A DNA stretch of 28,230 bases from IMG/VR virus record IMGVR_UViG_3300043427_001721, positions 1 through 28,230 of that record. One strand, written 5' to 3'. The translations under genes and the position numbers were made by a program. The notes beneath the pieces are model-generated. The model was given only the letters and a program-made list of their open reading frames with translations, was not told the DNA's origin and did not search any database. Positions 3,615 to 26,382 of the stretch are shown here, one piece after another. This DNA is from a virus (lineage: Duplodnaviria; Caudoviricetes). Position 1 is the stretch's first letter; every line of letters starts with the position of its first letter.

Positions 3615-4419
3615 TTGCCTTCTCCAGCCACGCCTGCGCTGCTGCGATGTTCGTGTCCTGGGCGCGTTTCGCCTTCGTCGGCGGGATCGGCCAGGGTTGC
3701 GACCAGGGACGATCGGGATCGCCGAAAAATCTTGCCGGGTTCAAGACCATCCGGTTCGTCGCCTGGACGTGAGCGGCGTATCGCTCGACGCCTTCGCGCA
3801 GATTCTCCCAGGACGCGCCGAGCTCGAGGTGCCTGCGGATGTGGTGCTCTGCGCTGATCCAGTCCGTGCGGCCCGCGTGTGGCGGGTATATCGCCTTCAG
3901 CGCCTCAAATTCCCGGCGCTCGTCGCCTTCCGCGCGCGCGAGTTTGGCTACCTCGAGCGAAGAGATTACGCATGAGGAGTTAGATGTCGTTGGAGATATA
4001 GTCTGGAGTCTGGAGTCTGGTGTCTGGATAGGTTGATCGTTCGTTGAACGATTCGTAGCACGAGTCGTGCTCGGCTCGTTGGCCTGTCGGTCCGCTCTTC
4101 GTCGCGCTTCTCGTTGCTCCGCGATCCGTCGATTCGTCTCTCGCTGCTCGTCCGCCTTCGCGATTTCGCGCTGGGCTCTCGAGTTAGTCCACCCACCCTC
4201 GCCCTGCTCCCAGAATTCCTCGAGGACGCGCTTCACGGCGTCTCGGTCGAGCTTCGAGACTGCGCCGACGATGCGGCAGAGCTGCGTCATGTCCGGCGGG
4301 AGCGGACGCTCGGTCGCGTAGTGATGATCGAGGAGCGACCTATATGCGCCGCGCTCGGTCAGCGAGAGGTGCCCGGTGTCACGTTGAAAGTCGCCGATGT
4401 AGTGCTTGTAGAAGTTCAC
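3601..4419 (-). CDS. phage replication initiator (YdaU/DUF1376 family)
   Basis: N-terminus MNFYKHYIGDFQRDTGHLSLTERGAYRSLLDHHY; central iteron-bearing linker; downstream of cro. Confidence 0.8.
   Translation of the reverse strand: MNFYKHYIGDFQRDTGHLSLTERGAYRSLLDHHYATERPLPPDMTQLCRIVGAVSKLDRDAVKRVLEEFWEQGEGGWTNSRAQREIAKADEQRETNRRIAEQREARRRADRQANEPSTTRATNRSTNDQPIQTPDSRLQTISPTTSNSSCVISSLEVAKLARAEGDERREFEALKAIYPPHAGRTDWISAEHHIRRHLELGASWENLREGVERYAAHVQATNRMVLNPARFFGDPDRPWSQPWPIPPTKAKRAQDTNIAAAQAWLEKASAAG
4001..4086. repeat. probable replication origin: 4x GTCTGG(A/T) plus TCGT-N3-ACGA iterons
   Basis: Tandem 7-mers at 4001-4028; TCGTTGAACGA (4041), TCGTAGCACGA (4053) and degenerate copies at 4065 and 4076, all inside the initiator gene. 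Confidence 0.65.
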
Positions 4420-4673
4420 GCCGCCTCCCCGACCTGGTTCACGCGGCGCCTAACTCTCGAGTCGCGGATCACGCGCCAGTCGACATCCGGTCGGAGTTCT
4501 TCGACCGTGACGATCCCGTTGCTCTCCCGCTCGATGTTGATCGCCAGCGATTCCGCGGCCTTTTTGTAGCCGTAGCTCACATTCCGCAGATGGCCTCCCG
4601 TCGTTCCGACGCGCTCTGCGAAACGGTCGCGCTGCCGGAGGGTCATGGTTTGTAGAAACTCTTTGAGTGTCAT
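4416..4673 (-). CDS. cro: Cro-like HTH regulator (YdaS-like)
   Basis: HTH FAERVGTTGGHL and VTVEELRPDVDW motif; divergent from the repressor. Confidence 0.85.
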   Translation of the reverse strand: MTLKEFLQTMTLRQRDRFAERVGTTGGHLRNVSYGYKKAAESLAINIERESNGIVTVEELRPDVDWRVIRDSRVRRRVNQVGEAA

Positions 4674-4682
4674 GGCGGCAGA

Positions 4683-4740
4683 AGTATTACCAAAATGGAA
4701 CTATTGTTCAATACCACACGGTAATTCACCTATAGGTGAA
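4683..4740. promoter_or_regulatory. OR-like switch region: cro promoter and operators
   Basis: Minus strand TTGAAC-17-AATACT. Operators ATACCACACGGTAAT (4711-4725) and the perfect palindrome TTCACCTATAGGTGAA (4725-4740); variant TACCAAAATGGAA at 4688. Confidence 0.7.
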
Positions 4741-4753
4741 GAATGATGAGACA

Positions 4754-5422
4754 ATGCAAACCGTGGACATCCAGGAAATTAGACGAGAACGCCTTCGGCG
4801 CCTTATCAGCGACGAATACGGCGGAAATACTTCGCGTTTTGGGCAGATAGTCGGAAAGAGCCAGAGTCAGCTTTCCGGTACGCTTACATCGAAGAAGGGG
4901 TTCGGAGAAAAGCTCGCCCGGCAGATCGAGGCGGCGGTTGGACTACCTAAAGGATGGCTCGATCGCGCCGACTCCTCTCGAGATATTGCGGAAGAAGCTC
5001 CAGAGGGGTTCGTCGCAGTGAGAAGAGTAAAAATAAAACTGGCCGCGGGCGTCATTGGCTGGGCTGTCGAATGCCACCAGGACGAAGCCCCGCCCCTGTT
5101 TTTCCGCAGGGAATGGTTTGAGTCGCGAGGCTTTCGGCCCGATCATCTTGTCGCCGTAAAAGTCGAGGGCCGCTCGATGGAGCCAGGCCTGTATGACGGC
5201 GACACGATCGTAATTAACAAAGGCGACACCGCCATCGTCGATGGCGAGGTCTTCGCCGTGAACTATGAAGGCGAACTTGTAATCAAGCGCCTCCGCCGAG
5301 ATTCCGGCGAATGGTTTCTCTCTTCCGATAACCCAGACAAGCGCCGCTACGGTGACAAGCGATGCGGCGAAGGCGTCGAGATCATCGGGCGCGTCGTCTA
5401 TAAGAATTCCGAGCGGATCTAG
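4754..5422 (+). CDS. cI: CI-like repressor, HTH plus S24 peptidase
   Basis: N-terminal HTH, Ala-Gly cleavage site (LAAG), catalytic GRSMEP and VIKRL. Start is 4754 or 4736. Confidence 0.92.
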   Translation: MQTVDIQEIRRERLRRLISDEYGGNTSRFGQIVGKSQSQLSGTLTSKKGFGEKLARQIEAAVGLPKGWLDRADSSRDIAEEAPEGFVAVRRVKIKLAAGVIGWAVECHQDEAPPLFFRREWFESRGFRPDHLVAVKVEGRSMEPGLYDGDTIVINKGDTAIVDGEVFAVNYEGELVIKRLRRDSGEWFLSSDNPDKRRYGDKRCGEGVEIIGRVVYKNSERI

Positions 5423-5485
5423 GTCCGCCTGGCCTGGTAGCCGTTATCCCGCAATAACCTTTTAGTCAACCATTACCGTCTGTTG

Positions 5486-5515
5486 TTGACTTAATAAGTA
5501 CCACCCGGTAATACT
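5486..5515 (+). promoter_or_regulatory. PL-like promoter with operator
   Basis: TTGACT-18-AATACT containing GTACCACCCGGTAAT (5498-5512), 13/15 identical to the operator at 4711. Confidence 0.7.
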
Positions 5516-5558
5516 CCCCAGGAAGCCGCAGTTCGCGGCCCCTGACTTGGGAGGTTAC

Positions 5559-5759
5559 ATGGACACAGCAATCGACGGGATCATCGCGTTTTCGGCCGTT
5601 TTGGTCGCTTTCGGCGTCTTCGCCGTGTTTAGCGGGATCGTCGAGTATCTCCTCAATCTGATCGAGACGCGCCGACGTAACCGTCGCCGCCGAGAGCTTC
5701 TGCCTGGCCCGAACGTCCGCTCGCAGCGCCGCGGCCGTCAATGGCAGGTGCCGCTGTGA
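5559..5759 (+). CDS. small membrane protein with Arg-rich tail
   Basis: GGGAGG RBS, hydrophobic N-terminal helix, then RRRNRRRR. Confidence 0.7.
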   Translation: MDTAIDGIIAFSAVLVAFGVFAVFSGIVEYLLNLIETRRRNRRRRELLPGPNVRSQRRGRQWQVPL

Positions 5760-5944
5760 GCTCGGTCGAGTACATCGAGCCACGCGACACGCGAGACGCT
5801 CCGCGGCCTGTTGCCCGCATGGAGCTCGACACGGACATTCCGCTCGGCGAGCTCATTCGCGCATTGAGCGCATCGGGCCTCTCGCTCTCGACGTTACACG
5901 GCGGAAGGCAGCTTATCCATCGAGTGCCGAAGGAGGCCGCATGA
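5756..5944 (+). CDS. hypothetical protein
   Basis: GTGA and ATGA overlaps with its neighbours. Confidence 0.65.
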   Translation: MSSVEYIEPRDTRDAPRPVARMELDTDIPLGELIRALSASGLSLSTLHGGRQLIHRVPKEAA

Positions 5945-6552
5945 TGGAGCAGCGATCGGCGGAATGGTTCGCGGCTCGTCTCGGCTGCGCGACGGCGTCG
6001 AAATTTCGCGCGGTTGTCTCGAAGCTGAAGAGCGGCAAGCCCGCCCAGGCTCGCATCGACTACGCAATCGAGCTCGTGACCGAGCGCTTGAGCGGACAGC
6101 CGACTCCGCATTTCACCACCGCGGCGATGCAGCGCGGTGTGGACCTCGAGCCCGCAGCGCGTATCGAGTACGAATTTAAGAAACGAATCGAGGTGCTCGA
6201 GACAGGGTTCTTGCGTCATCCGTCGTTGATGACTGGTGCATCGCCCGACGGTCTCGTCGGTGCCGATGGTCTCATCGAGATCAAATGCCCCTCGAGCACC
6301 GTTCACGTCGAGACGTGGTTAAACGGAATGCCGGACGACCACATCGCCCAGGTGCAAGGTCAGCTCTGGATCACCGGCCGTGCCTGGTGCGACTTCGTCT
6401 CATTCGATGACCGCCTGCCGAAAGAGCTCCAGCTCTACGTTCAGCGCGTCGAGCGCGACGACGTTTTCATCGCGAACCTGGACCTGGAGGTTCGACAGTT
6501 TCTTGCCGAGGTCGACGACCTCGAGCGCCAATTAAGGGAGAAGGCAGCATGA
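5941..6552 (+). CDS. YqaJ/lambda-exonuclease family recombination nuclease
   Basis: QRSAEWFAARLG-ATAS, GASPDGLV, IEIKCP and QVQGQLW motifs. Confidence 0.93.
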   Translation: MMEQRSAEWFAARLGCATASKFRAVVSKLKSGKPAQARIDYAIELVTERLSGQPTPHFTTAAMQRGVDLEPAARIEYEFKKRIEVLETGFLRHPSLMTGASPDGLVGADGLIEIKCPSSTVHVETWLNGMPDDHIAQVQGQLWITGRAWCDFVSFDDRLPKELQLYVQRVERDDVFIANLDLEVRQFLAEVDDLERQLREKAA

Positions 6553-7262
6553 CGACAGCGATTCAATCCGTCAGCGTGACGGACATCGAGAAGATGGCGA
6601 CGGCGGTCGCAAAGTCCGGGCTCTTCGGAGTCCGTACACCCGACCAGGCGATGTCTCTGATGCTGATTGCCCAGGCGGAAGGCCTGCACCCGGCGATCGC
6701 CGCGCGGGACTATCACATCATCCAGGGTCGGCCTTCGCTGAAAAGCGACGCGCTGCTCGCTAGGTTTCAAGCGAACGGCGGGAAGATCGAGTGGATCGAA
6801 TACACCGACCAGGCGGTCGCCGCCAAGGTGTCGCACCCGCAAGGCGGGACGGTCGAGATTCGCTGGACGTTCCAGATGGCCGAACGCGCCGGGCTCACGA
6901 AAAACGCAACCTGGCGCCAGTACCCGCGACAGATGCTTCGCGCTCGAGTGATCTCCGAAGGCGTTCGCGCCGTGTTCCCTGGGGTCGCGGTTGGCGTCTA
7001 CACCTCCGAGGAGGTCCAGGACATGACGATCTCGAGCTCGAGCGCGACAGTCGTCGCCCAGGAGCCGCAGCTCGCCGATCCGGTTCACCTGGTACGCGAA
7101 GCACCAGACATGGAGACGCTGAAGACTCGATTCCGCGATGCCGTCGTGCTCGCTAGGAAATCGAAGGATCGCGAGCTCGAGGAGTCGCTGAACTTTGCGA
7201 AGGATTCCCGGAAGGCGGAGCTCGAGGCGATCGTCGTCGAGCCGCAGGAGGTCGCAGCATGA
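6549..7262 (+). CDS. RecT/Red-beta-like ssDNA annealing protein
   Basis: Paired with the exonuclease; IIQGRPSL and WRQYPRQMLRAR...GVYTSEE motifs. Confidence 0.8.
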   Translation: MTTAIQSVSVTDIEKMATAVAKSGLFGVRTPDQAMSLMLIAQAEGLHPAIAARDYHIIQGRPSLKSDALLARFQANGGKIEWIEYTDQAVAAKVSHPQGGTVEIRWTFQMAERAGLTKNATWRQYPRQMLRARVISEGVRAVFPGVAVGVYTSEEVQDMTISSSSATVVAQEPQLADPVHLVREAPDMETLKTRFRDAVVLARKSKDRELEESLNFAKDSRKAELEAIVVEPQEVAA

Positions 7263-7441
7263 ACGCCGCCCTCGAGAACCTCGTCAAGATGGCCGACCAG
7301 GCGAGCTCCCGTCAGCTTGTCTGTGAGGTCATTCGCACCGCCTACGCGCTCGGCAAGTTCGACGCGCTCATCGAGACGACACTCGCCGAGGTGAATGCGC
7401 GCCGCCGCGAGCTCGATCGTCGTCGGGAGGTGATGTCGTGA
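7259..7441 (+). CDS. hypothetical protein
   Basis: 60 aa, start and stop overlap both neighbours. Confidence 0.65.
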   Translation: MNAALENLVKMADQASSRQLVCEVIRTAYALGKFDALIETTLAEVNARRRELDRRREVMS

Positions 7442-7668
7442 GCCGCTCCCAGACTGATCAGATCCGCTCCGCTCTGCTCTCCGGGCTCGAGCTGACACCG
7501 ATCGACGCGCTCGAGAGGTTCGGATGCTTCCGGCTCGCCGCTCGAGTCGCCGATCTTCGCGCCGAAGGCCTCGACATCGAGACCGTCACCGAGACCAGGA
7601 ACGGTAAGAAGTTCGCGCGGTATCGCGTCGCACAGCCGGTGCTCCCTGGATTCGAGCTCGTCATGTAG
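7438..7668 (+). CDS. small winged-helix protein
   Basis: SQTDQIRSALLSG..LTPIDAL..FGCFRLAARVADLR, a common phage wHTH pattern. Confidence 0.75.
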   Translation: MSRSQTDQIRSALLSGLELTPIDALERFGCFRLAARVADLRAEGLDIETVTETRNGKKFARYRVAQPVLPGFELVM

Positions 7669-7737
7669 TCATCGACGATGCGCGCGTCACACCGCCAACG
7701 GAGTCCGGCCCCGTCGTGCAAGCCGGAGAGGTTGCAA

Positions 7738-8169
7738 ATGACCATCGAATTCGACGAGTGGGACAAAGAGTGGGATCGGACATCTCACACCGTCAGCGAA
7801 TACCAGAGAGAAATTCGCGAAATGCGCGAGCGGCTGATTTGGTATGTCGCGCGGATCAGCGCGCTTGAGACGGAGATTCAGAGAGATGCGGAAGAGCGAC
7901 GCGCGATGGGTGCAGGAGCCATGACATCAACAGAGAGCTCATTCTACGCACAAATGTCTGACCTTGAGATTGTCGGTCATGTCGTAGTTATTCCAGACGC
8001 GAGCGAATTATCGCAGGCGCTCGCGCTTCGCGTATGTCGTCTTGTTGAAGAGCGCGAGAAAGCGCAAAGGATCGCCGCAGATCTACAGCGAAAGCTGCTC
8101 TCTTTACAGCTTGGGATCGCTGAAGACAAGCTCGACGCCTATGTTGAGATCGTAGAGCGCGCGGCATGA
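7738..8169 (+). CDS. coiled-coil hypothetical; probably two genes (7738-7924, 7921-8169) fused by a 1-nt insertion
   Basis: GGAGAGG RBS before ATG 7738. The +1 frame from 7880 reads REMRKSDARWVQEP* with TGA overlapping ATG 7921. Confidence 0.55.
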   Translation: MTIEFDEWDKEWDRTSHTVSEYQREIREMRERLIWYVARISALETEIQRDAEERRAMGAGAMTSTESSFYAQMSDLEIVGHVVVIPDASELSQALALRVCRLVEEREKAQRIAADLQRKLLSLQLGIAEDKLDAYVEIVERAA

Positions 8170-8288
8170 ATCCGGCCCTCCGAGAGCTTGTCGAGCTGCT
8201 TGCTCGAGCTGCCTACCAGGAGCTCCGGGACGCGCCGCCAGCGCCCCAGGATGGGCAGAAGTTGATCGAGAGCCGCCTGTCATCATAA
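8166..8288 (+). CDS. 40-aa helical protein, candidate recombination directionality factor
   Basis: MNPALRELVELLARAAYQELRDAPPAPQDGQKLIESRLSS. ATGA overlap upstream; ends 9 nt before the integrase ATG. Confidence 0.6.
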   Translation: MNPALRELVELLARAAYQELRDAPPAPQDGQKLIESRLSS

Positions 8289-8297
8289 GGTGACGCC

Positions 8298-9893
8298 ATG
8301 CGCGCCATTATTTACGCCCGATATTCGACCGAACATCAGACTGAATCGACGATCCTCGATCAGCTTCGTCGATGCCGCGACTACGCGAAAAATCACGGAT
8401 TAAAGATCGCCGCCGAGTACACCGACGAGGGTATCTCCGGCGCTGCGATAGGGAATCGACCAGGCGTTCAGAAGGCGCTCGCCGAGCTCGAGCGCGGGGA
8501 TGTTCTCCTGGTCGTCGACACTACGCGCCTTTCGCGTTCCCAGGATCTTGCGCCGTTGCTCACTAGGCTGCGGCATCGAGGCATCCGCGTCGTCGGCGTC
8601 CTGGACGGGTTCGACTCTGACAGTCGCACCGCCAGGATGCAGGCGGGTCTTTCCGGGATCATGTCCGAAGAGTTTCGCGCGCAGATCGCCTCGAGAACTC
8701 ACTCGGCGCTCGATATGAGAGCGCGCCAGGGAAAGGCGACGGGCGGGAAGTGTTACGGGTACTCGAAGGCGGGAGAGATCATCGAGGCGGAGGCCGCGAT
8801 CGTGCGCGAGGTGTTTGAGCGCGCAGCTCGAGGTGAGGCGATGAAGGCGATCGTCTGCGATCTGAATCGACGCGGAGTGCCGTCACCTGGCTCGAGCTGG
8901 GAGCGAAAGGCTCGCCGATCGGACGGGATGTGGCTCGTCTCGGCGATTCACTCGATGCTCGGGAACGATCGCTACATCGGCCGGGTTGTGTGGAATCGCT
9001 CGATCTGGAAGCGAGACCCAGACACCGGCAAGCGTCAGCGCGTCGAGCGACCGGAGTCGGAATGGATCGTGACCGAAGGTCCGGCGATCGTTCAGCTCGA
9101 GACCTGGGAGAAGGTTCGCGCCCTGGCGACGCCGAGAAAGTTCCACAATGGAACGAAAGGTCGCGGTCCGAAGTACATCCTTTCGGGGATTCTGGTTTGC
9201 GGGGAATGTGGCGGGAAGTTGGTCGCGACCGGCGCGAACGGTTCCTGGTACTACTGCGGCACCCGGCACCAGGGAGGCGACTCGGCCTGCTCGATGGCGA
9301 TCGGCGCCAGGCGGGACGTTGCCGAGGAGAAGCTGCTCGAGCCGATTACAAAACAGCTCCTCTCGAGCGACGCGGTCGAGCTGGCGGTCGCAATGATCCG
9401 CCAATGGCGGCGGGATGAACGCACGGAGTCGACGCGCCCGGCAGAGCTCGAGGAGCTTGATCGCCGGATCGCGAAGCTCGAGGCGCAAGTATCCCAAGGG
9501 ATACTCGACCGGGAGGACATCGCGCCCTCGGTAGCCGCGCTCCTGGAGCGCCGTCGAGCCCTGCTGGCGAAGTCCTGGCGGAAGGCGAACTCGAGGTCGA
9601 ACGTCGACCAGGCGGTCGCCGAGGAGGCCTATCGGCAGGCGGTCGCGAATATGCGGGAGGCTTTGCAGGGACCGGCGGCTCGAGCTCGAGCTGCGGTTCA
9701 CGAGCTTCTCGGGGACGTTGTGTGCCGTCCCGAGGCTGGAGTCCTAGTCGCTGCTGTCGCTGTGAATACCGCGCCGCTCATGCGAGCGGCGGGTGTTTCA
9801 CAGAATGGTAGCGGGGGCTCGCTTCCTTATTATGAAATGGTACCACTTGTTCGAGGCGGTCCGCCCTTATTTTCAAAGCTGCTCGCGGCCTAG
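8298..9893 (+). CDS. int: large serine recombinase (integrase)
   Basis: YARYS with catalytic Ser10, TRLSR, recombinase domain, zinc ribbon LSGILVCGECG...YYC...C, coiled coil. Confidence 0.96.
   Translation: MRAIIYARYSTEHQTESTILDQLRRCRDYAKNHGLKIAAEYTDEGISGAAIGNRPGVQKALAELERGDVLLVVDTTRLSRSQDLAPLLTRLRHRGIRVVGVLDGFDSDSRTARMQAGLSGIMSEEFRAQIASRTHSALDMRARQGKATGGKCYGYSKAGEIIEAEAAIVREVFERAARGEAMKAIVCDLNRRGVPSPGSSWERKARRSDGMWLVSAIHSMLGNDRYIGRVVWNRSIWKRDPDTGKRQRVERPESEWIVTEGPAIVQLETWEKVRALATPRKFHNGTKGRGPKYILSGILVCGECGGKLVATGANGSWYYCGTRHQGGDSACSMAIGARRDVAEEKLLEPITKQLLSSDAVELAVAMIRQWRRDERTESTRPAELEELDRRIAKLEAQVSQGILDREDIAPSVAALLERRRALLAKSWRKANSRSNVDQAVAEEAYRQAVANMREALQGPAARARAAVHELLGDVVCRPEAGVLVAAVAVNTAPLMRAAGVSQNGSGGSLPYYEMVPLVRGGPPLFSKLLAA
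9796..9837. other. putative attP inside the integrase 3' end, matching the tRNA-fMet 3' end
   Basis: Imperfect inverted repeat (14 of 20 positions pair) centred on GG 9816-9817. Minus strand of 9806-9818 reads GCCCCCGCTACCA. Confidence 0.75.
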
Positions 9894-10142
9894 CCGACAG
9901 CTCGCCAGGGAGCGCACAGAGCGGAGCTTGATGTTTGCCTCGTTGAGGCATTCGGTCGCGTCGAGGTAAGCCCTGGCGAGGTCTCCGTTTGTCTGGAGCG
10001 ATCGCTCCGGGACGACACACTCTGCCGTCAGGTAGTCAGGGATCGGGGGGCACGTCTCGACGATCACCGAGCGACCAGCGCACCCGGTCAGGGATAGGAT
10101 CGAGAGCCCAATCGCGGCTCTCCGGGTCGGTCGTCGTGGCAT
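9873..10142 (-). CDS. o-spanin (Rz1-like lipoprotein)
   Basis: Lipobox LTGC, Pro/Cys-rich mature part, TNGDL motif; overlaps the Rz-like gene. Confidence 0.85.
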   Translation of the reverse strand: MPRRPTRRAAIGLSILSLTGCAGRSVIVETCPPIPDYLTAECVVPERSLQTNGDLARAYLDATECLNEANIKLRSVRSLASCRLGREQL

Positions 10143-10401
10143 TGGATAGATCCTCGCGTTTCCTATTTGCGGAGCGACGTATCGCTACCAGATCACGCTC
10201 GAGGCTGGTCAGGACGAGCTGCTGCTCGGCGAGTGCCTCGGCGAATCGTTCGCCCGCCTCCGCCGTCGCGGCCTCCCATCGAGCCCGCTCCGCCTCGACG
10301 CCGTTCCCGTAGGCCCATCGGTAAGCCCCGACCAGGAGCGCCAGGGAAGCCAGGACGGCGACCAGGTGCGGGAGGTATCGCAGGAGCCAGGGCGGGATCA
10401 T
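10036..10401 (-). CDS. i-spanin (Rz-like)
   Basis: N-terminal TM helix, coiled coil, C-terminal WALDPIPD; ATG 10401 in an ATGA overlap. Confidence 0.8.
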   Translation of the reverse strand: MIPPWLLRYLPHLVAVLASLALLVGAYRWAYGNGVEAERARWEAATAEAGERFAEALAEQQLVLTSLERDLVAIRRSANRKREDLSNATTTDPESRDWALDPIPDRVRWSLGDRRDVPPDP

Positions 10402-10613
10402 TCGCGCGGGTCGCGGCCGGTGAGCCAGGTGATGTACCAGATCGCCTTCCCGGCCTCCTGCTTCGGCGCGTCCTTCTTTCCCAGGCGCCAGAGGTAAGCC
10501 ATCGCGGAGCCCTTGACGTAGCCCTGGAACTCCTCCGGCGTCAGAGCCGCGCGCAGCGCGTCGATACACTCGATCTCGCCCTGGTAGTGGCTCGGGTTGA
10601 TCGCGTCCTTCAT
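10398..10613 (-). CDS. DUF3310 (SaV / T7 gp1.7-like) protein
   Basis: DAINPSHY...ECIDAL...YLWR.GKK...KAIWY motif. Confidence 0.85.
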   Translation of the reverse strand: MKDAINPSHYQGEIECIDALRAALTPEEFQGYVKGSAMAYLWRLGKKDAPKQEAGKAIWYITWLTGRDPRE

Positions 10614-11806
10614 GCCGCCCTCGGGATGGTGATCCATTCGGTCTTCGATGTGGTCGTGCCGCGTTGCACATAGACCGGCATTCGGAACGTAATGCCGTGT
10701 TGCGGGTGCGTGATCCAGAGCGCCTGCTGCGCCGGTTCGACGTCGAAGTTGTTCGCGTCGGCGTACTCGTCGTAGCCCTTGAGCGTCCCGTTTACGATGA
10801 AGCGATTCATGTGAATGTACTGGTGCCAATGCCCGAGGAGCATGACGTCGAAGCTCTTGTCGGTCTGGACGTTGCGCGCGCGTTTCTTTTTGTCGCCTCG
10901 AGCGATCGGACCGAGCGCGCCGATCATTCCGTCGCCGCCTCGAAACTGATCGCCGTGCGTGAGGAGGTATCGCGTCCCGAAGATCTTGTAGTAGGCGTCC
11001 GGCCCTTCCGGGATCAGGAACGTCACGCGGCGATCGGCCTCGAACACCTTTGCGAGCATCTGGTACAGAAGCCAGTCGAAGTTCGTGTGGTTGCGTCGCT
11101 TCGCTCGAGGCTTGCGACTAGTGCGGCCGTGGTTGCCGGTGACGCAGGGAATGAAGACGGCGCCAAACTCATCCGCTAGGGTGCGAACGCACCAGGACAG
11201 GACACCGACGAGCTCGATCAGAGCTGGCATCGTCGGCATTTCGTTCGTTTCGGATAGCTCCTCGTGAATGTCGCCCGAGAGCATATCGCCGCCCAGGATA
11301 AACACACAGCCGGGATACTTGCCGCCCTGGATGTGCTTTCGCAGGAGCTCGATCGCGACCGTGATGAAGGTGCGCGCTCGATCCTTGGCGATCTCGACGT
11401 TGTACTCGTTCACGCCTCCGATCTCGGCAGGACGGACGACCTCGCCGAAGTGCCAGTCGCTCGCGAACAGCGTCGGGACGCCTGCAAACTCCGACACCGG
11501 CCGCGACGGTTTCGTCAGCCAGGCAGGCGGAGCCACCGATGCGCGCGAGAGCTTGAAGATCTCATCGCGAACGACCGCGTCGTTCAGCATCTTGCTCTCG
11601 AGATCTTTGATGTGAGCTCGAGCGGCGCGAAGCTGCTCCTCGAGGGTGTGCGGACGTTGCTCCGCTTGTTCGATTTTGTCGACGTGCAGACGGATCGTGC
11701 CGGAGTTCACTCCGAGAGCGAGAGCCGTCTGTCGCAAGTTGCGACCGTTTTTCAGCCAGGCTGCGTGAACAGCCACCGAGTCGAGGTTCTTCTTTGCTGT
11801 TGTCAT
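10610..11806 (-). CDS. calcineurin-like metallophosphoesterase with N-terminal HTH
   Basis: SDWH, GGD, GNHG, THGD and GHWH motifs; N-terminal NLRQTALALGVNSGTI. ATG 11806 in an ATGA overlap. Confidence 0.85.
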   Translation of the reverse strand: MTTAKKNLDSVAVHAAWLKNGRNLRQTALALGVNSGTIRLHVDKIEQAEQRPHTLEEQLRAARAHIKDLESKMLNDAVVRDEIFKLSRASVAPPAWLTKPSRPVSEFAGVPTLFASDWHFGEVVRPAEIGGVNEYNVEIAKDRARTFITVAIELLRKHIQGGKYPGCVFILGGDMLSGDIHEELSETNEMPTMPALIELVGVLSWCVRTLADEFGAVFIPCVTGNHGRTSRKPRAKRRNHTNFDWLLYQMLAKVFEADRRVTFLIPEGPDAYYKIFGTRYLLTHGDQFRGGDGMIGALGPIARGDKKKRARNVQTDKSFDVMLLGHWHQYIHMNRFIVNGTLKGYDEYADANNFDVEPAQQALWITHPQHGITFRMPVYVQRGTTTSKTEWITIPRAA

Positions 11807-12099
11807 TCTGTTTTGAAAGTCGTAAGCGCTTGTTGTAAGAGCGCGCCCAGGTTGTCGACGAACGCCTCGTCGTGAGAGAGATCGTGGTTCATCATGTCCA
11901 GGAGTGCGTGACACAGCTCGTGACAGAAGGTCGCCTGGAGCTGCGTCTCGATCGGATCTGCTAGGAGGTCGATGCGGAGCTTGTCGGGTATCCAGATTCC
12001 GACGTTGCCCTTGCCGTGACGCCATTTCGAGCGCGGAATGACGCGGACCTTGATCGTATGACCGAGGAGCTGGAACTCCTTCGGGATGCCGGTCGTCAC
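11803..12099 (-). CDS. small HExxH zinc metallopeptidase-like protein
   Basis: TFCHELCHALL with a downstream E (DEAFV). Confidence 0.7.
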   Translation of the reverse strand: MTTGIPKEFQLLGHTIKVRVIPRSKWRHGKGNVGIWIPDKLRIDLLADPIETQLQATFCHELCHALLDMMNHDLSHDEAFVDNLGALLQQALTTFKTE

Positions 12100-23413: not shown

Positions 23414-23685
23414 AGCTGTCGCACCTGTACCAGGACCGAGCGGTCCTCGATGCGTCCGCCCGGCGTCGTGACGCGATTCGTGATGAGGTAGTCAGCTCCG
23501 GCCGCTCCGCCGGAGAGGAAGGCGCGCGTCACGTTCGCCGTCACACCTTCCGAGACGATCGAGAGCGCTGCGGGAACTTCCCAGGCCGAGGTCGTGACCG
23601 CGTCCCCGTTCAGCCAGGGATTCCAGTCGACCTCGAAGTCGATCGTCGAGTTTGGATCTTTCGTGAATGCCGCGATGATCGTCAT
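23410..23685 (-). CDS. small Ig-like fibre adaptor protein
   Basis: KDP...DF..DW..WL.GD...S.W and LSGG..G..Y..TN..TT..GR patterns, seen next to fibre genes. Confidence 0.65.
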   Translation of the reverse strand: MTIIAAFTKDPNSTIDFEVDWNPWLNGDAVTTSAWEVPAALSIVSEGVTANVTRAFLSGGAAGADYLITNRVTTPGGRIEDRSVLVQVRQL

Positions 23686-25223
23686 GCAGCGATTCTCCTG
23701 TTATTGCGTGAGACCTTGATCGTGCGGCCTTCCGCTTCGACCTCGATCGAACTGTCAGCGCCGACCTTGAGCGTCGAGCGCTGCGGAATAATTTCGCGGC
23801 GATCCTGGAACGGAACCTTCAGCTCTCGAGAGTCCGGCGTGAAGGTGCGATTCCGTAGCCGTCCGCTGACGGTCGCATCGCCCTCCGCATCGCCGTCGAC
23901 GGAGCCGCGCCCTCGCGCCTGTGCGCTGATCTCGGCGGTGCCGAAGACCAGGCCCAGGATCGGGCCGCGCCCGTAGATCGTGACGATAGAGCTCGCCGAG
24001 CCCGCCGCGTCGCCGACCTGGCGACCGTAGGCCAGGATCGAAGCGCTCGCGCTCGAGGTGCCGCTCTCGTTGCCGTCGACCGCGCCGCGCCCGTAGGCCG
24101 GAACATCCTCGACGGTGCTCTCGCCCGAGATCGCGCCCTGGACGATTGAGCGCCCGTCGATCGAGGCCTCGACCGTAGCGTCGCCCGCGATCGAGCCGGA
24201 GCCCATCGCGAAGGCGCGCGCCTCGGCGCTGACTGTTGCGTCGCCTGCAATCGAGCCATCCGCCGGAGCGAATGCCAGGATGACCGCGCTCGAGCTCGAG
24301 GAGCCGATCGCCGCGCCAGGTGCGGAGATCTTCCGCTGCCCGGAGCCCTCGACCGTCGCCAGGCCTTCGGCGGAGCCGGAGCCCTGGGCGGTTGCCAGGA
24401 TGTCGCCGGACACCGAGCTCGAGGAGCTCGAAGCACCCTCGGCCGTAGCGGTCGCCAGGATGTCGCCGCTCGCCGCCGCAGAGCCCGCAGAGGCGGCATC
24501 TGCCAGACCGTAGGCGAGGACATCCCCCGCGATCGTGCTCGCCCCCTGCGCCGCCCCATTAGCCGGGAAGACGCCCTGGATTGAGCCGTCGACCGTCGAG
24601 GTGCCGGACGTTTCGCCGCGGCTCGAGAACCTCGCGGTCCCCGAGGCGGTTGCAGTCGCCGAGCCCTCGGCCTGGCCGGATGCCTGGCCGGTTGCGAACG
24701 CATCGCCCGAGACGGACGCGCTGCCCGAGCTCGAGGCGTCGAGTCCGGTGCGCGCCTGGACATCGGCCGCGGCCGTAGCCGTCCCCGCAGCAGCGCCCTC
24801 GCCTTCGATACGCCCGGAGCCGTCGGCGGTTGCCGTCGAGCTCGAGCTCGAGGAGGCGGAGATCGGCCCCGACGCAATGACCGCGCCCGCGACCGTTGCA
24901 GATCCCGAGGAGATGCCGCTCCCGGCGCCCGCCGCAATGATCGCGCCAGAGACCGCCCCGGTCCCGGCTGCGGAGCCGGTCGCCGAGGCGATTGCCCGAG
25001 AGGTTGCCGACGTCGTCGACGAACCCGCGGAGCTTGCAATCGGACGGCCGATCGCGTCGATGTCACCCGTGACCGTTGCCGAGCCAACACTCGCGCCAGG
25101 CGAGGAGATCTTCGGAACGAGCGCGCCGGTGACGGTCGCTGACCCTGCGGCGGTGCCGTACAGCGTATCGCCGACGGCATAGCCGAAAAGCCAGTAGTCG
25201 CTCTGGACGTATAGGCCGCTCAT
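23682..25223 (-). CDS. Ala/Gly/Ser-rich repetitive virion protein (513 aa)
   Basis: About 21-aa quasi-repeats of the type G.A.GS..G.ATV.G.I.A; aromatic N-terminus YVQSDYWLFGYAVGD. Confidence 0.75.
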   Translation of the reverse strand: MSGLYVQSDYWLFGYAVGDTLYGTAAGSATVTGALVPKISSPGASVGSATVTGDIDAIGRPIASSAGSSTTSATSRAIASATGSAAGTGAVSGAIIAAGAGSGISSGSATVAGAVIASGPISASSSSSSTATADGSGRIEGEGAAAGTATAAADVQARTGLDASSSGSASVSGDAFATGQASGQAEGSATATASGTARFSSRGETSGTSTVDGSIQGVFPANGAAQGASTIAGDVLAYGLADAASAGSAAASGDILATATAEGASSSSSSVSGDILATAQGSGSAEGLATVEGSGQRKISAPGAAIGSSSSSAVILAFAPADGSIAGDATVSAEARAFAMGSGSIAGDATVEASIDGRSIVQGAISGESTVEDVPAYGRGAVDGNESGTSSASASILAYGRQVGDAAGSASSIVTIYGRGPILGLVFGTAEISAQARGRGSVDGDAEGDATVSGRLRNRTFTPDSRELKVPFQDRREIIPQRSTLKVGADSSIEVEAEGRTIKVSRNNRRIAA

Positions 25224-25456: not shown

Positions 25457-26020
25457 CTACGGTGCGCTGTCTACTGAAAATTCGATGGTCGCCGTGTCGA
25501 GTACCGCCCCGCTCGAGGCGAGGCGGATTTCGATCGCTAGGTTTCGCGTCTGGTAGTTATTGGTCGCGGATAACGTCCACTCGCGAGTCGTCGCAAGGTT
25601 GAGCCACGAACCCGTCGTCCCGCCCACCGTTCCGCCGGAGCCCGACCAGGTCGCATACACATCGAACAGCGACGCGGCCCCGCTCGTCAGCCACTCGCCG
25701 CTGATCGAGACAAGAGTCCCGCCGACGTTCGTGCGGGACGCTGCGCCGGTACTGGCGAGCCGATATGTGGCAGTCGCCGTGCCGCCGATGCCTGCCTTCG
25801 AGTTGTTTATCGCCGACTGGTTGCTAATCGCGACGCTCGCGTTCGCCTTACCGTAAAAGCTCGAGAGCGAGATCGCGCCGCTCGAGACTCCGGCCAGCGT
25901 TCGCAGCGCCGACTCGTCGAGACTGCTCGTCGCGGTCGCGGACCGCCCGAGCTCGAGGTTAATCGAGCGATCGGTTGTCGATCCGCCGATCGAGATCTCG
26001 CCGGAGGAAACGAGAGGCAT
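25457..26020 (-). CDS. Ser/Gly/Thr-rich virion accessory protein
   Basis: MPLVSSGEISIGG...INLELG...GAISLSSFYGK, an N-terminus typical of genes that follow fibre genes. Confidence 0.75.
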   Translation of the reverse strand: MPLVSSGEISIGGSTTDRSINLELGRSATATSSLDESALRTLAGVSSGAISLSSFYGKANASVAISNQSAINNSKAGIGGTATATYRLASTGAASRTNVGGTLVSISGEWLTSGAASLFDVYATWSGSGGTVGGTTGSWLNLATTREWTLSATNNYQTRNLAIEIRLASSGAVLDTATIEFSVDSAP

Positions 26021-26382
26021 TAGGCCGCGACGTCAGCCGGTGCTGCGGGAGCTTCTGGAGCCGGAGCCCAGGGAAGAGGCTTCTGCTCGAGCGCGGCCTT
26101 CTCGACCTCCTTCGCGACGACGTAGGCGATGTGCGCCTGGTACGGTGCGAGCTGATCTTCCTGCGACCACACCCAGGCCTCGACCTCTGCGGGAGTGAGC
26201 TGCGAGAAGTCGACGAAATTCTCGGGAGCCGGATCGCCGACGTTGACCGAGATCGGAAGCTCGAAGCTGCACCCGCTGTCGGTGCCCTTGAGCGTGACGT
26301 CGACCTCCTTCACTACGTTTTGCAATTCGCCGACGTTGTGAACGCGGACCGCGTTGATCTTTAGCGTGTATTCGATAGCCAT
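26020..26382 (-). CDS. fibre-associated protein (chaperone-like)
   Basis: LQNVVKEV...FVDFSQLT..EV.AW...LPW pattern; follows the fibre gene. Confidence 0.7.
   Translation of the reverse strand: MAIEYTLKINAVRVHNVGELQNVVKEVDVTLKGTDSGCSFELPISVNVGDPAPENFVDFSQLTPAEVEAWVWSQEDQLAPYQAHIAYVVAKEVEKAALEQKPLPWAPAPEAPAAPADVAA

Follow-up and report, generated by a model that had tools for sequence, protein, structure and literature searches.

A large serine integrase gene with a predicted attP inside its 3' end: integration into tRNA-fMet would exchange a protein tail that ends in a candidate degron

The gene of a large serine integrase in an uncultured lambdoid phage almost certainly contains the phage attachment site attP, and relatives of the protein swap their C-terminal tails at this point, an arrangement that is known in kind. 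Since attP sits in the end of the gene, insertion into tRNA-fMet would exchange the last 24 residues of the integrase. The site, the target, the fork point and both protein ends can be taken as established by the comparison of sequences among relatives; a short-lived form in the free phage and a stable form serving excision are what we infer from them. On balance, we lean to the reading that integration swaps a degron-bearing tail, such that a stable integrase would exist only in the prophage, with a logic like that of lambda sib but at the protein level.

The window (the whole stretch of DNA analysed, 28,230 nucleotides) comes from a lambdoid phage with recombination, lysis and tail genes; as a virus record it is linear and 64% complete, and lake and freshwater metagenomes contain DNA near-identical to it. 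The integrase and its lambda-like context, the latter assigned by domain and PHROG matches, are as follows.

4416-4673, minus strand: cro-like gene
4736-5422, plus strand: repressor gene
5941-6552, plus strand: exonuclease gene
6549-7262, plus strand: RecT gene
8298-9893, plus strand: large serine integrase of 531 aa, long free-phage form (Pfam Resolvase/Recombinase/Zn_ribbon_recom, phrog_95, AlphaFold2 fold)

From RecT to int the genes form a chain, mostly ATGA-coupled, which points to int as the last gene of a lambda-like recombination operon; the region 4400-10300 holds one promoter-like site, against 1.1 expected, and no int-specific promoter was found in it. The domain search and the AlphaFold2 model gave the Resolvase, Recombinase and zinc-ribbon domains and the coiled coil of a large serine integrase, and the catalytic motif Y6-R8-S10, near the N-terminus, is invariant in 38 aligned sequences. 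The fold matches of the model were the integrases of SPbeta, Bxb1 and phiC31, and the comparison with 9y66_A gave VIA Z 17.1, rmsd 14.2 and 455 aligned residues. Close relatives are absent from the collections of cultured phages and plasmids, where the best phage match was about 32% over 75% of the query, and 401 genomes from the family of genome G004 yielded no close prophage but 11 matches at a distance of 32-40% identity, one of which (G387, unpublished) supports none of our claims. Because a genome with a 49% relative of the integrase (G003) falls in the Povalibacter family, a Steroidobacteraceae-like host is our guess. As a side observation, a gene resembling exonucleases or phosphoesterases (phrog_284; 10610-12025, minus strand) lies between the endolysin and spanin genes.

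Concerning the attachment site, the features of the integrase 3' end are:

9796-9837: attP, imperfect inverted repeat with 14/20 pairs and a 2-bp centre (dyad scan, 57 non-redundant relatives)
9816-9817: predicted crossover dinucleotide GG, bases 1-2 of codon 507 (Gly), assigned by symmetry
9806-9818, minus strand: 13-bp block identical to the tRNA-fMet 3' end with its CCA; integration would restore the tRNA
9819-9893, plus strand: swappable tail, residues 508-531 plus stop, with RI and a stop in its place in integrated relatives

The original prediction had placed attP within the integrase gene, as a dyad of 14/20 pairs centred on the first two bases of codon 507. The dyad was recomputed exactly, the paired arms being 9796-9815 and 9818-9837, and its peak and the fork point of relatives agree on the GG centre. 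A dyad score of at least 14 is reached at only 4 of the 28,188 possible centres in the window (mean 5.3). The crossover was assigned by symmetry because GG sits within a run of five G. In free forms (n=31), the mean dyad score is 11.8/20 at the GG offset, versus 3.5-6.6 at 16 other offsets; a second set of free forms (n=26) gave 10.1/20 at GG, and the tRNA forms scored 5.6 and 5.8. The outer arms covary across the 57 relatives, with 6.86 pairs versus 3.88 +/- 0.28 in shuffles, none of 2000 shuffles reaching 6.86. Contigs cross the site unbroken in 8/8 public runs, two of which may be the window's own source, so the junction at 9816 is not an artefact of assembly. A second dyad, at 9781, was rejected as the att centre: relatives fork at 9816-9818, and the sequence at 9781 folds as a hairpin.

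The two forms of the protein end were compared in loci found by scanning collections of viruses, genomes and metagenomes. Among the matches listed, all 150 loci fork at the same base, 68 being tRNA forms and 82 carrying free tails; this set is redundant (the window counts twice), comprises loci in which the integrase end is complete and contains the motif GGTNGCGGGGG, loci lacking the motif being left out, and comes from word-index searches biased toward near relatives, some of which list the best 80 matches. The 68 tRNA-form loci run into reverse tRNA-Met(cat), 25 of them ending in RI and a stop (GSGG frame) and 43 in a shifted frame (VAG-) with ends like AGFEPATFGL. A tRNA-Met target, prophage copies diverging at GSGG and a prophage end of about NGSGGRI had all been predicted, and this is what the integrated relatives contain. 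A tRNA-Met(cat) gene was found at the junction in five loci (L018, L019, L020, L022 and L192). Positions 1 and 72 of this tRNA are mismatched and three G-C pairs precede its anticodon loop, which are features of an initiator tRNA. The same integrase body occurs with both ends: in two 90% protein clusters (P0110/P0115 and P0133/P0129) the bodies are identical over 300/300 residues, and in a third pair over 277/300. At the far junction the dyad is restored in 12/12 genomes examined, with 10-14/20 pairs versus 5-7 at the int junction; this junction supplies an open tail and lies 11 to 70 kb off on the same contig, or, in one case, on a separate contig.

The closest integrated relatives (L192/L193, P0094 and P0138) are 63-65% identical to the window. 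Because 0/69 sequences at 66% body identity or more are in the integrated form, integration of the window's own lineage into tRNA-fMet is presumed from these relatives. No attL or loose end at 9816 was seen in the contig sets of the 8 runs, an absence that does not mean real absence because contigs lose rare variants.

Several loci have a more complex layout. In L345 (G405:C72:116) and L028 the far site stands with the phage's own left arm and is therefore a whole attP, from either a tandem lysogen or the assembly of an excised circle. Some genomes contain multiple displaced tRNA-fMet ends (L163/L164 in G001, L167 in G002, L169-L171 in G005, L351 in G414), which suggests tandem arrays of islands in which an integrase takes its tail from the neighbouring element; the "free" tails with a low dyad score in L196, L253 and L257 may be hybrids from such arrays. 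P0072, from the cluster of P0004, has two additional in-frame copies of the att region ahead of a normal tail, that is, stacked att-like sites. Distant serine integrases run likewise into tRNA-Phe, tmRNA or tRNA-Leu (L048, L053, L079; L051; L074, L082, L092, L095), so the layout covers other targets.

Turning to the tail itself, two features were distinguished in it.

9834-9845, plus strand: predicted beta-strand, residues 513-516 (AlphaFold2; block 511-520, pLDDT 76)
9879-9890, plus strand: terminal LLAA, candidate ClpXP degron, in a low-confidence stretch

The 24 residues past codon 507 are as the original prediction gave them, ending in LLAA. Its contention that this end is not a by-product of an ATGA overlap holds, the stop being TAG with no such overlap. 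AA C-termini occur in 9/41 window genes (codon-usage caller), most of them at ATGA/GTGA overlaps; the eight besides int (5741-8169, 4416-4673, 10610-12025, 23682-25223, 26020-26382) are nearly all at start-stop overlaps. In the window's cluster, 8/8 distinct tails end in LLAA or RLAA, and LAA is invariant together with 7/21 other columns. The proposal of an ssrA-like -LAA degron is partly supported, in that LLAA fits 4/5 positions (2-5) of the consensus [LFYW][LAR]LAA from the covered part of an E. coli degron screen (PMC10862746); it departs from it at position -5, which is K, R or N in the cluster, the screen preferring Leu or an aromatic residue. We read this residue as lowering the expected tag strength, not as breaching a strict requirement. 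In the same part of the screen, FKLVA was degraded, 39% of AA-ending tags were weak, polar residues at -5 were depleted and upstream Gly/Ser was inhibitory, and for the last reason the short end GSGGRI should be a poor tag. The model has pLDDT below 50 over about residues 521-531 (522-525, 527-531), yet DSSP assigns a helix to 523-530. The ssrA tag is ALAA in 3 of 4 genomes with relatives, the fourth being without a call. Taken as a reading of the sequence, a functional degron in the window's tail is rather probable.

It had also been predicted that phage copies would conserve the terminal AA. For this comparison, 333 integrase ends were clustered by body identity, and at the 80% level those with free tails of at least 6 aa gave 102 clusters. 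With near clusters defined as at least 45% identical to the window (n=58) and distant ones as below it (n=44), a line set after seeing the data, 35/58 near clusters end in Ala and 17/58 in AA, versus 8/44 and 2/44 of the distant ones. The background was drawn from the same loci and consisted of 376 called genes for which divergent homologues exist; of these, 95 (25%) end in Ala and 49 (13%) in AA; the corresponding figures are 24 (15%) and 9 (5.5%) for the 165 genes without a start-stop overlap, and 34% and 19% for the 211 with one. Near clusters exceed the whole background (Ala p 2e-7, AA p 0.002) and the non-overlapping genes (Ala p 8e-11, AA p 7e-6), and their AA excess over overlapped genes is marginal (p 0.066), all these p values being too small because the clusters are related by descent. 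The distant clusters are without enrichment of Ala or AA (p 0.35-0.98), and so is AA over all 102 clusters against all genes (19/102, p 0.1). The Ala enrichment in the near clade holds at cut-offs of 40-70%; in the tree, a 55-row clade (support 98) contains 35 Ala ends, and the end-type label changes 19 times versus 33 when shuffled. Of the 58 near clusters, 44 are known as protein only; among the 14 with DNA, Ala closes 5, and in no case does this end fall at an overlap. Inside the tails, away from the end, Ala amounts to 9.7%; Ala-ending tails come in 14 lengths, and three near or adjacent members with the att site in another frame still end in RRAA. The usual near end is h-x-R-[RL]-[AV]-A (RAA 12, [LR]VA 7, LAA 3/58). 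The prediction thus stands for Ala in the near clade and fails for the distant one, and LAA as such is rare. The nearest sister group (L013/P0004) ends in IAKR, and none of the 12 prophage far-junction tails, all distant, ends in Ala. It seems reasonable to regard the tag as plausible but clade-limited because of the 44 clusters lacking DNA, the IAKR sister, the far-junction tails and two SRAA ends derived from the spanin gene (below). At the sequence level, it would be limited to one clade and laid over a tail swap that is family-wide.

The first alternative is that the tail acts structurally: its strand would join the sheet of the zinc ribbon (DBD2) and set the direction or activity of the enzyme, for instance by blocking the site of the directionality factor, the terminal Ala being incidental. 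Solved integrases align with the model only up to about residue 496-510, starting from residue 1; the short form should therefore retain the whole canonical fold, with the tail as an addition. Both clades and both reading frames have a predicted strand, the one of the distant L121 spanning 517-522 (pLDDT 82); a hydrophobic h-x-h motif, a loose pattern, occurs in 50/58 near and 29/44 distant tails, and a strand like YLTEP[LV]R[IV] in most of the 12 prophage-derived tails. According to the covered part of Shin 2025 (PMC12286644), the DBD2 sheet gains a strand from most directionality factors; the same work suggests that C-terminal strands could block this site, and leaves open the effect of C-terminal extensions on directionality; a partly covered preprint states that excision by the SPbeta integrase needs its extreme C-terminus (bioRxiv 2025.01.03.631226). 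A structural role suits the distant clade, which is without Ala enrichment, but it leaves unexplained both why 60% of near clusters have Ala at -1 and why the strand of the window is followed by 11 low-confidence residues ending in LLAA. That the strand pairs with DBD2 is moreover a conjecture. The structural role is compatible with the degron rather than exclusive of it. As a sole account drawn from the model, we consider it unlikely, though the best of the alternatives.

A neutral read-through was also considered, in which the att site lies in the gene end for compactness, AA comes from GC content, inheritance or the spanin overlap, and both forms behave alike. Two features bear on it.

9873-10142, minus strand: o-spanin gene (Rz1-like, LysC), antisense over the last 21 nt of int, codon for codon
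9760-9803, minus strand: strong hairpin inside int, just past the restored tRNA 3' end (z -6.4)

The spanin overlap, which an earlier reading had missed, covers the LAA codons of int, and in L184/L186 the SRAA end is what spanin KLR codons give when read in antisense. A neutral origin would also agree with the wide variation of free tails (8-46 aa), with the frequency of AA ends in these phages (13%) and with the canonical fold that the model leaves intact in the short form, and a trivial explanation is listed for DsiB, a related case treated below, in the portion of McMurdie 2011 covered (PMC3146451). Against it, two substitutions under LAA are silent in int and alter the spanin, and in the L186 spanin the residues opposite LAA are not conserved. 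Ala is enriched over both the background genes and the inner part of the tails, and the predicted strand is conserved. RNA structure was rejected as the cause of the AA codons at the int stop, folding there being no stronger than in shuffles (mean z 0.25, n=16). A neutral tail is thus improbable. The hairpin is a separate matter: it is conserved (mean z -4.4 for 14 near loci and -2.7 for 107 distant ones, against about 0 for controls), encoded by PLxxAAG codons, and likely serves to terminate or process the transcript of the tRNA.

The gene preceding int was also considered.

8166-8288, plus strand: unannotated 40-aa gene in the position of xis, this copy ending in LSS (profile, conservation)

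It stops 9 nt upstream of int. Because its position matches that of lambda xis and it is conserved, its product is a candidate directionality factor of the integrase. The family has an N-terminal amphipathic helix, a variable linker and frequently an AA end; a profile of the helix alone, built from 51 hand-picked copies, matches the region upstream of 99/221 integrase loci, and 74 database proteins match the family profile. PHROGs and the ESM Atlas gave no match to the 40-aa protein. AA closes 38/79 distinct ends, none at ATGA/GTGA, versus 1/224 control frames; among 29 family copies outside the profile set, 6 end in AA, as do the copies of L007 and L008. These ends use 12 different pairs of Ala codons, and RNA structure was discarded as their cause, folding being at the level of shuffles (mean z 0.02, n=33). 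A complex prediction of integrase residues 150-531 (long form) with the 40-aa protein gave a median score of 0.23, below the mark of 0.32, which counts neither for nor against binding. In L001 and L003, relatives 98-99% identical, an unrelated gene replaces the 40-aa gene, with the same end position before int.

Returning to the favoured reading, a degron exchanged by integration, the course of events would be the following. On insertion into tRNA-fMet, the integrase would exchange its 24-residue tail for Arg-Ile-stop, and the loss of the tail would remove the predicted extra strand and the likely ClpXP tag LLAA. In the free genome, a tagged, short-lived integrase would give less integration or re-integration in lytic growth; in the prophage, on induction, an untagged and stable integrase would carry out excision, with the 40-aa protein as the likely directionality factor. 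The logic of lambda sib retroregulation would thereby be shifted from mRNA to protein. An alternative use of the same tag is as a sensor of protease load, the level of integrase gating lysis and lysogeny as in phage BPs. The window's integrase has a tag-like end, and in the covered part of the BPs work Int is C-terminally tagged and acts as a sensor (PMC3694055), but here a separate lambda-like pair of repressor and cro lies 3.5 kb away, so immunity need not hang on integration; together with the lack of an int promoter in 4400-10300, this makes such a gate less needed, and we give it little credence. A role like that of lambda sib would agree with the order of the genes no less well.

The integrases SprA of SPbeta, Bxb1, phiC31 and LI/A118 have the same domain order and fold as the window's integrase and a short inverted-repeat attP with a 2-bp centre, with attP outside the coding sequence; mapped on the model, their structures stop at about residue 496-510, and the window's tail extends beyond. 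The integrase of BPs is of the tyrosine type, and Mx8 IntP, from a Myxococcus phage, is reportedly a tyrosine recombinase with the att site in int whose integration alters the integrase. In lambda, RNase III acts at sib, and integration separates sib from int. The proposed signal of the window would differ from sib by residing in the protein instead of the mRNA. The likeness is that in lambda, too, int ends the recombination operon behind a small gene, and that sib, which lies distal to int, reduces the amount of Int in lytic growth (covered part of PMC2951348). The SSV-type archaeal integrases, split by their own att site, are tyrosine enzymes (PMC5861418, in part), unlike the serine recombinase described here; in SSV and, reportedly, in Mx8, the change lowers or abolishes activity, whereas here a tag would be removed. 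In BPs, attP also lies inside a gene, whose product loses a C-terminal degradation tag upon integration (Broussard and Hatfull 2013, PMC3694055, in part), but it is the repressor that loses the tag while Int keeps its own; here the integrase would lose it, and the repressor (4736-5422) is separate.

A further close precedent is DsiB of the Dehalococcoides ssrA islands, a large serine recombinase with a variable C-terminus and with attP/attL always overlapping the 3' end of its gene; it differs in its target, ssrA, and in being part of an island with a DsiA partner, against tRNA-fMet and a lambdoid phage here (McMurdie 2011, PMC3146451, in part). In the passages of that paper bearing on DsiB, regulation is proposed, a degron is not, and no test is reported. 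The original prediction could not confirm that the system is undescribed. The architecture is already in print; an integrase removing its own degron was not found among the matches listed by full-text searches of freely accessible papers, nor was the tail swap of the tRNA-fMet integrase family. Searches for terms within PMC12884075, PMC11476347 and PMC10083194 gave nothing further on the topic, and the words "tRNA" and "C-termin" are absent from the covered main text of Durrant 2022.

A wider reading joins both roles of the tail: in a clade of proteobacterial phages, one crossover would strip a ClpXP tag and a site-blocking strand together, so that an enzyme which is unstable and limited to integration would become stable and able to excise, with new AA-tagged directionality factors of 40-55 aa. 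We put this forward as a doubtful possibility. If the tag works, the recombinase would set its own half-life by rewriting its own gene, without an extra regulator, as a protein-level counterpart to lambda retroregulation. Whoever mines bacterial genomes for tRNA-fMet integrases as engineering tools will obtain the short form of the prophage and would miss the tail that the integrating form carries. The natural pairs of long and short forms with identical bodies make the effect of C-terminal extensions on directionality directly testable, and the small upstream gene is a candidate for a new class of directionality factor.
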